Shown in pieces: positions 17,233 through 18,061 of a stretch of DNA of 64,000 bases. Position 1 is the stretch's first letter. Every line of letters starts with the position of its first letter. The notes beneath the pieces are model-generated. The model was not told where the DNA came from and did not search any database. It was given only the letters and a program-made list of their open reading frames with translations. The position numbers and the translations under genes were made by a program. The DNA is from Escherichia coli (GTDB lineage: Bacteria; Pseudomonadota; Gammaproteobacteria; Enterobacterales; Enterobacteriaceae), in the NCBI RefSeq assembly GCF_041248615.1, contig NZ_CP158426.1, one strand, 5' to 3'.

Positions 17233-17682
17233 TTACCTTGTCCAGTCATCAACCATTTTTTTCAGGGGGAACATCTGCAATACATTCATTAATGCGAAAT
17301 ATAATTCCCCCTGTGGCACCCATATTCTAATCTTCTCACCCCCTAAAATGAAAAATTGCAATTGACGTTTGAAACCTAATGTTTTATCTTCAGGTAATTC
17401 AGCTTGTATTTTTTTATTGATATCATCAAGGTAGATGTGATGACAATACTCATCAAACATACTCATTACTTCCAGACCGTTTACAGATGTCCATCTTTGT
17501 TCACTTTCCCAATAAACAAGAACCGGTTTGCGGCAGGTATATCTGCCTAAAAAGCGCTGAATGTGTTCTTCCTGATTCTCGTAAAATATTGCCTCTGCAT
17601 TCGAGATTTGCCGACGCATTCGCCAGCGGATTTTTTCTTCATAAAAAGACAATTTGTCGCATTTGGTATTACTCAAATTCAT
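17233..17682 (-). CDS. hypothetical protein (149 aa from ATG; track ORF starts 3 codons earlier at TTG), AT-rich islet gene
   Basis: Track ORF 17233-17691; ATG at 17680-17682 preferred. No family recognised. Overlaps the upstream gene's stop by 14 nt. Confidence 0.55.
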   Translation of the reverse strand: MNLSNTKCDKLSFYEEKIRWRMRRQISNAEAIFYENQEEHIQRFLGRYTCRKPVLVYWESEQRWTSVNGLEVMSMFDEYCHHIYLDDINKKIQAELPEDKTLGFKRQLQFFILGGEKIRIWVPQGELYFALMNVLQMFPLKKMVDDWTR

Positions 17683-18061
17683 TGTCAACAACTCGCATGG
17701 TTTTAAATATAAAATTTAAAAAACCGCCAAACAAATGAAGTGAAATTTCATACTTCTTTGCCTTATAAACAATTACCGCATCTTTAATATTACCTGCATT
17801 TTGGTTATCTATAAGTTCAGCAATATCCATAACCTGCGATAAATGTTCCACTCCCGTAAACTCGAACCTTTTTCGTTCCCTTCCGGCTGTAAATTCATCA
17901 ACATAAAGTTCTGCCGTCAATATAAAATTATACTCGGTGTGGTGACATTCCATTCTGGTTTCTACTAAAACACCATCATGCCAGATAATATTGTCTAAAT
18001 TTTTCATACTATTAATCCAATCCATTACTTTCTGATAAAATTTCCTCTGGAAGTTTTTCAT
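17669..18061 (-). CDS. hypothetical protein (130 aa), AT-rich islet gene
   Basis: Track ORF with ATG start and in-frame stop 3 codons upstream; no obvious SD; no family recognised. Confidence 0.5.
   Translation of the reverse strand: MKNFQRKFYQKVMDWINSMKNLDNIIWHDGVLVETRMECHHTEYNFILTAELYVDEFTAGRERKRFEFTGVEHLSQVMDIAELIDNQNAGNIKDAVIVYKAKKYEISLHLFGGFLNFIFKTMRVVDNEFE

Follow-up and report, generated by a model that had tools for sequence, protein, structure and literature searches.

The present analysis concerns a small gene locus in a stretch of 64,000 nucleotides of Escherichia coli DNA (NCBI RefSeq assembly GCF_041248615.1, contig NZ_CP158426.1), called the window in what follows, on the minus strand of which two short genes, g2 and g3, lie between hrpA (22194..18292) on one side and ydcF (15297..14497) on the other. 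The region around the two genes is 100% identical to E. coli isolate NRZ14408 (record NZ_LT599825.1). An initial annotation, made from the sequence alone, had described them as a compact bicistronic module of two same-strand open reading frames (ORFs) with an out-of-frame overlap of 14 nt, placed just downstream of the hrpA terminator. The geometry is borne out, as the ORFs run 18061..17669 and 17682..17233 on the minus strand, the TAA of g2 occupies 17671-17669 and the ATG of g3 17682-17680, and the terminator hairpin is found where it was expected. The module itself is larger. Intact forms of the locus consist of four same-strand genes, g1 to g4, between hrpA and ydcF, and because a remnant of g1 lies upstream and g4 follows downstream in uninterrupted alleles, what had appeared as a bicistronic module is the intact middle of a four-gene array. 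Likewise, the roughly 175 bp of AT-rich DNA upstream, proposed as DNA that could hold a promoter of the pair's own, contains the g1 remnant instead.

The array is carried by an island with a GC content of 33-38%, compared with ~52% in its flanks. In the 'empty' site of strain K-12, where hrpA and ydcF are 271 bp apart, 141 bp of spacer correspond to what the island replaces, and the hairpin of the hrpA terminator, also kept in K-12, forms the conserved left island edge. Of 5426 complete E. coli genomes, 586 (~11%) carry the island and the other 89% lack it; it falls into two allele groups, one that matches the window type at 99% or more (247 genomes) and one at ~93%, the O157:H7 allele (335 genomes). 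In a plasmid collection, tblastn of g2 and g3 gave no match to the island. Within the intact array, g1 and g2 are separated by a 4-nt gap, g2 and g3 overlap as described above, and g3 is followed by a gap of ~120 bp, with a gene relic in it, before g4. The sole insertion in the array is IS1414, an insertion sequence (IS). No ORF for an Rhs or CdiA core or for a toxin C-terminal region (CT) occurs in the ORF lists of the island (window, L002, L003, and L006; L numbers denote the loci compared), searches of the island for cassette-type repeats and for RNA families or genes found none, and neither an integrase, an attC-like repeat, nor a toxin gene is present in the hrpA-flank locus.

Both g2 and g3 are real genes rather than chance ORFs, given the ratios of nonsynonymous to synonymous substitution rates (dN/dS), the existence of distant homologues, and the annotation in RefSeq. 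Between alleles, dN/dS ranges from 0.16 to 0.6, with the closest alleles at 0.5-0.6 and longer distances at 0.16-0.29, the lower values over longer distances indicating purifying selection. The two genes remain intact across two alleles that have diverged by ~7%, distant homologues of about the same length number in the dozens for each, and RefSeq lists them as coding sequences (CDS), never as pseudogenes, in all E. coli records listed and in four that were examined closely. The 130-codon ORF reported initially does exist, but the gene within it has 112 codons, its start being set at ATG 18007 because RefSeq and the family alignment place it there. The 18-codon extension upstream of this start is wholly different in the O157, L006, and L005 alleles and missing from family members, and it is probably not translated. 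The g3 ORF has 149 codons from its ATG and 152 from an upstream TTG. Neither product (112 and 149 aa) has a hydrophobic leader, a transmembrane segment, or a match to an enzyme family.

A HMMER search of 1.84 billion representative proteins, with the four proteins concatenated as the query, gave 273 matches at E <= 1e-3, which fall into four distinct families, each made up of small proteins that stand alone. Pfam-A, NCBIfam, and PADLOC contain no match for g2, g3, g4, or the 44-aa g1 remnant (PADLOC at E <= 1), and when all members of the g2 and g3 families were scanned against Pfam, the sole match was to CdiI_3, in a fusion protein. The PDB, searched by sequence with individual proteins as well as family profiles, gave nothing significant for any of the four proteins, and a word-index homologue search with g2 and g3 retrieved only relatives of at least 64% identity. 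The four families are thus lacking from the libraries searched, and the locus is not described in the literature searched. The g2 family has invariant W9, D11, N68, G72, and G95, which form WHDG and DNxxAGNI-type motifs, and the g3 family conserves WT, LDxIxK, and IWAPxG...FALMNILxMFPL. AlphaFold2 models built from family alignments reached a mean confidence score (pLDDT) of 91.7 for g2 and 90.6 for g3. The g2 model is mostly beta and, in a fold search, resembles the solved immunity protein PIM7; in the g3 model, a helix at the N-terminus precedes a PH-like beta-sandwich, and no fold of an enzyme, a toxin, or a DNA-binding protein is seen. The two predicted folds differ from each other.

The initial annotation also proposed that the two genes are translationally coupled partners, such as a toxin and its antitoxin or immunity protein, and suggested a co-occurrence analysis of the pair, the outcome of which does not support a partnership. 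When one genome of each species was scanned with a degenerate DNA pattern of the g2 motifs, 23 stretches were hit, and 10 of them were confirmed as g2-like by a hidden Markov model (HMM) while the other 13 were not. The confirmed genes come from Citrobacter, Acidovorax, Rhodoferax, Sulfurovum, Gilvimarinus, Phragmitibacter, a Burkholderiales metagenome-assembled genome (MAG), and other MAGs, and HMM searches found no g3-like ORF in any of these 10 non-Escherichia loci. An Escherichia relative, L005, carries a 64%-identical g2 and a g4 remnant without g3. In L012, both families occur in one array, in reversed order and with an ankyrin-repeat gene between them, and the g3-like domain there is fused to a CdiI_3 immunity domain to give a 'polyimmunity protein'. 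In L014, from another enterobacterial genus, g2 has a g1-like gene rather than g3 as its conserved neighbour; g1 was also considered as a conserved g2 partner in L017 and rejected, the upstream 177-aa protein there being unrelated to g1. Judged from this distribution, g2 and g3 are not partners of each other and the two families occur independently. Distant members of the g2 family are also seen as single genes in housekeeping contexts, with no toxin near them, for example, at L036 971-1312 (fabI/fabB), L031 1695-2015 (after SPFH/NfeD), and L022 5600-5923 (galU/NUDIX).

A link of each family to toxins emerges from the neighbours of its relatives. A g2-like gene lies directly 3′ of an Rhs ORF in four loci, namely L023 of Citrobacter youngae ATCC 29220, L024 of a gammaproteobacterial MAG, and the rhs loci L048 and L052 of E. 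coli. The adjacent ORF contains the end of the Rhs-associated core TIGR03696 (...DPxGL), followed by a shared CT with the pattern G(K/Q)WKDCGxGCRIRID...GGRHLHWEC...GE.GG.SHG, the tail of which is the Pfam domain Tox-WTIP (PF15654). The Cys/His-rich CT domain has no NCBIfam family and matched no solved chain, PT7 included (Pfam not run); the copy in L048 is interrupted by an IS2-type element. The module of a Tox-WTIP tail and a g2-like gene is present in 405 of the 5426 complete E. coli genomes, and E. coli cq9 carries, one after the other, VgrG, Rhs, an immunity gene, an orphan Rhs-CT, and the g2-like gene. In the 2012 catalogue of polymorphic toxins, Tox-WTIP is listed as a predicted pore-forming toxin for which no immunity protein is known (PMC3482391). 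On the side of g3, toxin-adjacent loci of the family are L009, L008, and L011. The start of the homologue P0028, 40% identical to g3, falls within the final 62 nt of a full-length Rhs gene (1500 aa) linked to type VI secretion, which is located downstream of Hcp and VgrG and comprises an RHS_core (27-1275) and a 225-residue CT. This CT matches nothing in Pfam or NCBIfam, and complete E. coli genomes do not match it at the DNA level. The g3-adjacent Rhs effector occupies L009 3560-8062 (the CT being the last 225 residues) and is also found at L008 7547-8062, and its CT contains ...IHDGIAEVDIDLTNNISYSDIRTLLDYAKSQGATEVEVNSGY...TGDFTIVFK. Since relatives of g2 and a relative of g3 are each situated 3′ of an Rhs CT, both families are found in the classical immunity position, next to different toxins. 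The idea of a toxin-immunity link in the initial annotation therefore stands, and the overlap of the two genes is compatible with coupling, but g2 and g3 are not each other's partners and neither is toxin-like.

The 3′ flank of hrpA is occupied by comparable arrays elsewhere, with gene contents that differ from one locus to another (Table 1). Because the hrpA proteins of L013, L014, and L046 are ~94% identical to that of E. coli, these loci are suggested to belong to other genera. DUF596, which opens the array in L046 and L047, is Imm-NMB0513 in the 2012 catalogue (PMC3482391), and related arrays also hold a gene for an ankyrin protein (L012). The 160-aa and 119-aa genes of L006 have homologues within an E. 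coli rhs locus. The L006 array, a longer one of the Escherichia type, opens with a 285-aa DUF7021/DUF2262 protein (380-1237) and closes with a 156-aa protein whose N-terminus resembles a signal peptide (4488-4958), each of which may be a further immunity-type gene.

The outer genes of the array are damaged in the window. Intact g1 encodes 141 aa in O157:H7-type alleles, and 291 bp of it are lost here; a frameshift joining the 44-codon ORF to g2 was considered and rejected, the ORF being a separate gene, g1, with an in-frame internal deletion. The g1 family has many homologues of 130-190 aa, and the full-length protein matches no Pfam or NCBIfam entry. Intact g4 encodes an acidic protein of 125 aa that forms its own family, and a g4-like gene is also found in the hrpA-flank array of another genus. 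That g2 and g4 could be paralogues was rejected, as hhalign profile comparison shows no relation. In the window, g4 is split by IS1414, a member of the IS256 family, the transposase of which lies at 15809-17017 (+) and which is flanked by a 9-bp target duplication (15729-15737 and 17052-17060); a second IS1414 copy with the same transposase accession is located ~34 kb away on the chromosome (L054 26757-27965). In addition, the spacer between g3 and g4 contains a 40-codon ORF that matches the last 28 residues of a 138-aa gene of L012 (39% identity, pairwise E = 6e-07), which comes after the g2-like gene there, and by this alignment the ORF appears to be what remains of the C-terminal end of a fifth array gene, now lost.

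Table 1. Coordinates of the features of the hrpA-ydcF island in the window, of toxin C-terminal regions next to g2-like genes, and gene order downstream of hrpA in compared loci
Feature	Position	Strand	Basis or remark
Whole low-GC island	15371..18234 (approx.)	-	blastn of the K-12 hrpA-ydcF spacer against the window
hrpA intrinsic terminator hairpin, then T-run	18229..18275	-	inverted repeat I2 and reading of the sequence
g1 remnant, 44-codon ORF	18146..18012	-	alignment with the O157:H7 allele; RefSeq pseudogene
18-codon 5′ extension of the 130-codon ORF	18061..18008	-	non-conserved; overlaps the g1 remnant in another frame
g2, 112 aa, acidic, pI 5.2, predicted orphan immunity protein	18007..17669	-	corrected start ATG 18007
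g3, 149 aa, predicted orphan immunity protein	17682..17233	-	ATG at 17682-17680
40-codon ORF in the g3-g4 spacer	17095..17217	-	BLASTP against the 138-aa gene of L012
g4 5′ fragment, first ~20 codons	17052..17113	-	uninterrupted allele in CFSAN061763
IS1414 (IS256 family) in g4	15738-17051	+	RefSeq annotation; breakpoints by blastn against the uninterrupted allele
g4 3′ fragment	15413..15737	-	comparison with the uninterrupted allele
Cys/His-rich Rhs-CT, L023	2848-3285		
Cys/His-rich Rhs-CT, L024	2208-2702		
Cys/His-rich Rhs-CT, L048	6953-7348 plus 8637-8756		
Cys/His-rich Rhs-CT, L052	5518-6093		
L006, downstream of hrpA			DUF7021/DUF2262, g1, g2, g3, g4, NGO_1070-like, 160-aa gene, CDI_Immunity_Comp, 156-aa gene
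L046, L047, downstream of hrpA			DUF596, CdiI_3, LprI, g4-like, 142-aa gene
L013, downstream of hrpA			g2-like, LprI
L014, downstream of hrpA			g1-like, g2-like, 217-aa gene

Taken together, g2 and g3 are quite probably the undamaged central genes of a heterogeneous polyimmunity locus, in which small cytoplasmic proteins of unrelated families, the members of which confer immunity to C-terminal toxin domains of Rhs or type VI effectors, are encoded on one strand of horizontally acquired DNA with no toxin gene among them. Such loci have been defined as tandem, same-orientation, and tightly spaced sets of unrelated immunity genes that are never interrupted by toxins and are probably polycistronic (Zhang, de Souza, Anantharaman, Iyer & Aravind 2012, Biol Direct 7:18; PMC3482391), and the assignment is made because the anatomy of the array fits this published definition: the genes follow each other in tandem and in the same orientation with small gaps, no toxin gene intervenes, and several unrelated families are represented. 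What is expected of immunity proteins to Rhs toxins of type VI secretion systems (T6SS) is also found, in that members of the families are located directly 3′ of a variable CT and are small, predicted cytoplasmic proteins lacking an enzymatic domain, a signal peptide, or a transmembrane segment. A cognate toxin near the window locus was looked for and rejected, as the neighbouring rhs locus carries another toxin together with a pentapeptide-repeat immunity gene, and no second g2-like or g3-like ORF occurs in the window or the adjacent 45 kb. With no cognate toxin nearby, g2 and g3 are therefore orphans in this strain. In terms of mechanism, a single transcript would cover the array genes, initiated in the short stretch that follows the hrpA terminator or arising by read-through, and translation of g3 may be coupled to that of g2 via the overlap. 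Each protein would then bind and block one type of incoming Rhs/T6SS toxin delivered by competing enterobacteria, and the protection would serve a cell that does not itself make that toxin. Of all this, the structure and distribution of the genes, their families, the places where relatives lie, and the folds are shown by the analysis, whereas joint transcription, coupling, toxin binding, and any protection of this strain are inferences.

Several observations weigh against the interpretation as a polyimmunity locus. The likeness of g2 to PIM7 is at the level of the fold only (14% identity), with no profile match, so g2 is not filed in the PIM7 family, and the g3 fold is a generic PH-like one to which no solved immunity protein was matched. 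The g2 of the window shares only 33-39% identity with the toxin-linked members of its family, and the immunity position of g3 is known from one toxin type only, with the same junction in four loci. Moreover, most of the distant g2 and g3 homologues examined stand alone among housekeeping genes with no toxin near, a placement that is compatible with orphan immunity but also with other roles. Lastly, a sigma-70 consensus promoter was not found upstream, and the locus is visibly decaying in this strain, with g1 internally deleted and g4 split by the insertion.

These points bear on three other explanations. Decay fits the idea that the genes are functionless relics of an old toxin/immunity or polyimmunity locus that give the strain no protection, as g1 and g4 are broken, a fifth gene is represented by a relic, decay has gone further in L005, dN/dS between the closest alleles is fairly high, no consensus promoter was found, and 89% of E. 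coli genomes do without the island. However, the reading frames of g2 and g3 have outlasted the ~7% divergence between the two alleles and dN/dS drops to 0.16-0.29 over longer distances; in addition, a toxin of the type cognate to g2 circulates in E. coli (405/5426 genomes), so a selective reason for g2 exists. We regard the relic explanation as improbable. That g2 and g3 form a self-contained pair, in which one poisons and the other neutralises, whether as toxin and antitoxin or as toxin and its own immunity protein, is extremely improbable. The notion is attractive because the two genes are small, overlap out of frame on the same strand, and belong to a horizontally acquired island, but it is largely refuted by the families not co-occurring outside Escherichia. 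Where their relatives are found, g2 persists without g3 in L005, the two are non-adjacent and in reversed order in L012, and the conserved neighbour of g2 in another genus is g1. Nor does either protein match a toxin-antitoxin, toxin, or defence family in Pfam, NCBIfam, or PADLOC, and the PIM7-like and PH-like folds are not those of a nuclease, kinase, pore, or DNA-binding protein.

It is also very unlikely that g2, g3, or both have a physiological role apart from interbacterial toxins, for instance, as small binding or regulatory proteins whose adjacency to Rhs genes is secondary. Many distant g2 homologues are indeed single genes among core genes (fabI/fabB, after SPFH/NfeD, and near valS/galU), as is one distant g3 homologue among housekeeping genes, g2-like genes lie downstream of hrpA in several genera, and the g2 motifs are unusually invariant for an immunity family. 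However, these housekeeping neighbours reveal no conserved functional partner, and orphan immunity genes are commonly scattered in genomes (PMC3482391). The three independent cases of toxin adjacency of g2 all involve the same toxin family, its fold is PIM7-like, and its partners in the arrays are recognised immunity families, all of which argue for immunity instead.

A polyimmunity locus is thus the preferred interpretation of the array, and it can be compared with systems described before. With published polyimmunity loci (PMC3482391), it has in common the tandem, tightly spaced, same-orientation arrangement of unrelated genes, the lack of a toxin gene or cassette between them, a content that varies among related strains and genera, and the occasional fused protein, here CdiI_3 with a g3-like domain. 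It differs from them in that g1 to g4 fall outside the named Imm families and the Pfam-A release searched, and in that it is short (four genes, two of them intact) and bound to one fixed site across enterobacterial genera, with immunity as a predicted function. PIM7, the immunity protein to PT7 of Bacillus cereus (PDB 8owu chain E), resembles g2 as a small, mostly-beta cytoplasmic protein beside a polymorphic toxin CT, whereas at 14% identity no match was obtained by phmmer or by profile searches of the PDB. The toxins differ as well: PT7, from Firmicutes and Proteobacteria, is a DNase fused to LXG, the immunity proteins of which are reported to occlude active sites (bioRxiv 10.1101/2021.10.19.465003), whereas the toxins next to g2-like genes are Rhs CTs that are Cys/His-rich and end in a Tox-WTIP tail. 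Relatives of g2 and g3 sit in orphan Rhs toxin/immunity modules, in which a small immunity gene comes after an Rhs-CT fragment, near VgrG and a full Rhs gene, as known from E. coli and Salmonella (PMC3150448, PMC3967940). In contrast to such modules, the window locus has no Rhs-CT fragments and is ~40 kb away from the rhs locus of the strain, which carries another toxin/immunity pair. Type II toxin-antitoxin operons are similar in being made of two small overlapping same-strand genes on acquired DNA, but g2 and g3 lack a conserved pairing, a toxin fold, a DNA-binding antitoxin fold, and a family match. There is no conceptual surprise here, because the kind of system is already known; what is new to the libraries and literature searched is the locus and its four families. 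Also apparently new are the pairing between the g2 family and Rhs toxins with a Tox-WTIP tail and the recurrent use of the hrpA flank.

A wider proposal can be drawn from the comparisons, although as a joint statement it is rather unlikely to hold in all its parts. The 3′ flank of hrpA could be a hotspot that spans genera of the Enterobacteriaceae, where an unrecognised capture mechanism brings in, rearranges, and removes immunity cassettes of many unrelated families, the g2 family could be the missing immunity partner of the Tox-WTIP-tailed Rhs toxins, and the g3 family could provide immunity to a new, unclassified Rhs toxin.

Elsewhere in the window, gapC (glyceraldehyde-3-phosphate dehydrogenase, 11818-12819, +) has an undamaged ORF of 333 codons, in contrast to K-12 MG1655, where the gene carries a pseudogene annotation. 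Rfam families above the gathering score are the sok antitoxin RNA of hokB/mokB (10314-10465), the small RNA RydC (11025-11088), and the small RNA MicC (59089-59204), all of which are ordinary E. coli features.

For E. coli, these results propose a testable function for 'hypothetical' genes carried by ~11% of complete genomes, including the 335 with the O157:H7-type allele. They add two immunity-type families, g2 and g3, together with g1 and g4, that are lacking from the domain libraries searched, and they propose a cognate immunity family for the Tox-WTIP-tailed Rhs toxins, for which the 2012 catalogue has none. The hrpA-ydcF junction becomes a possible place of repeated occupation by orphan immunity genes across several genera of enterobacteria. 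As orphan immunity arrays affect the survival of type VI attack in the gut, the locus may matter in competition between strains.

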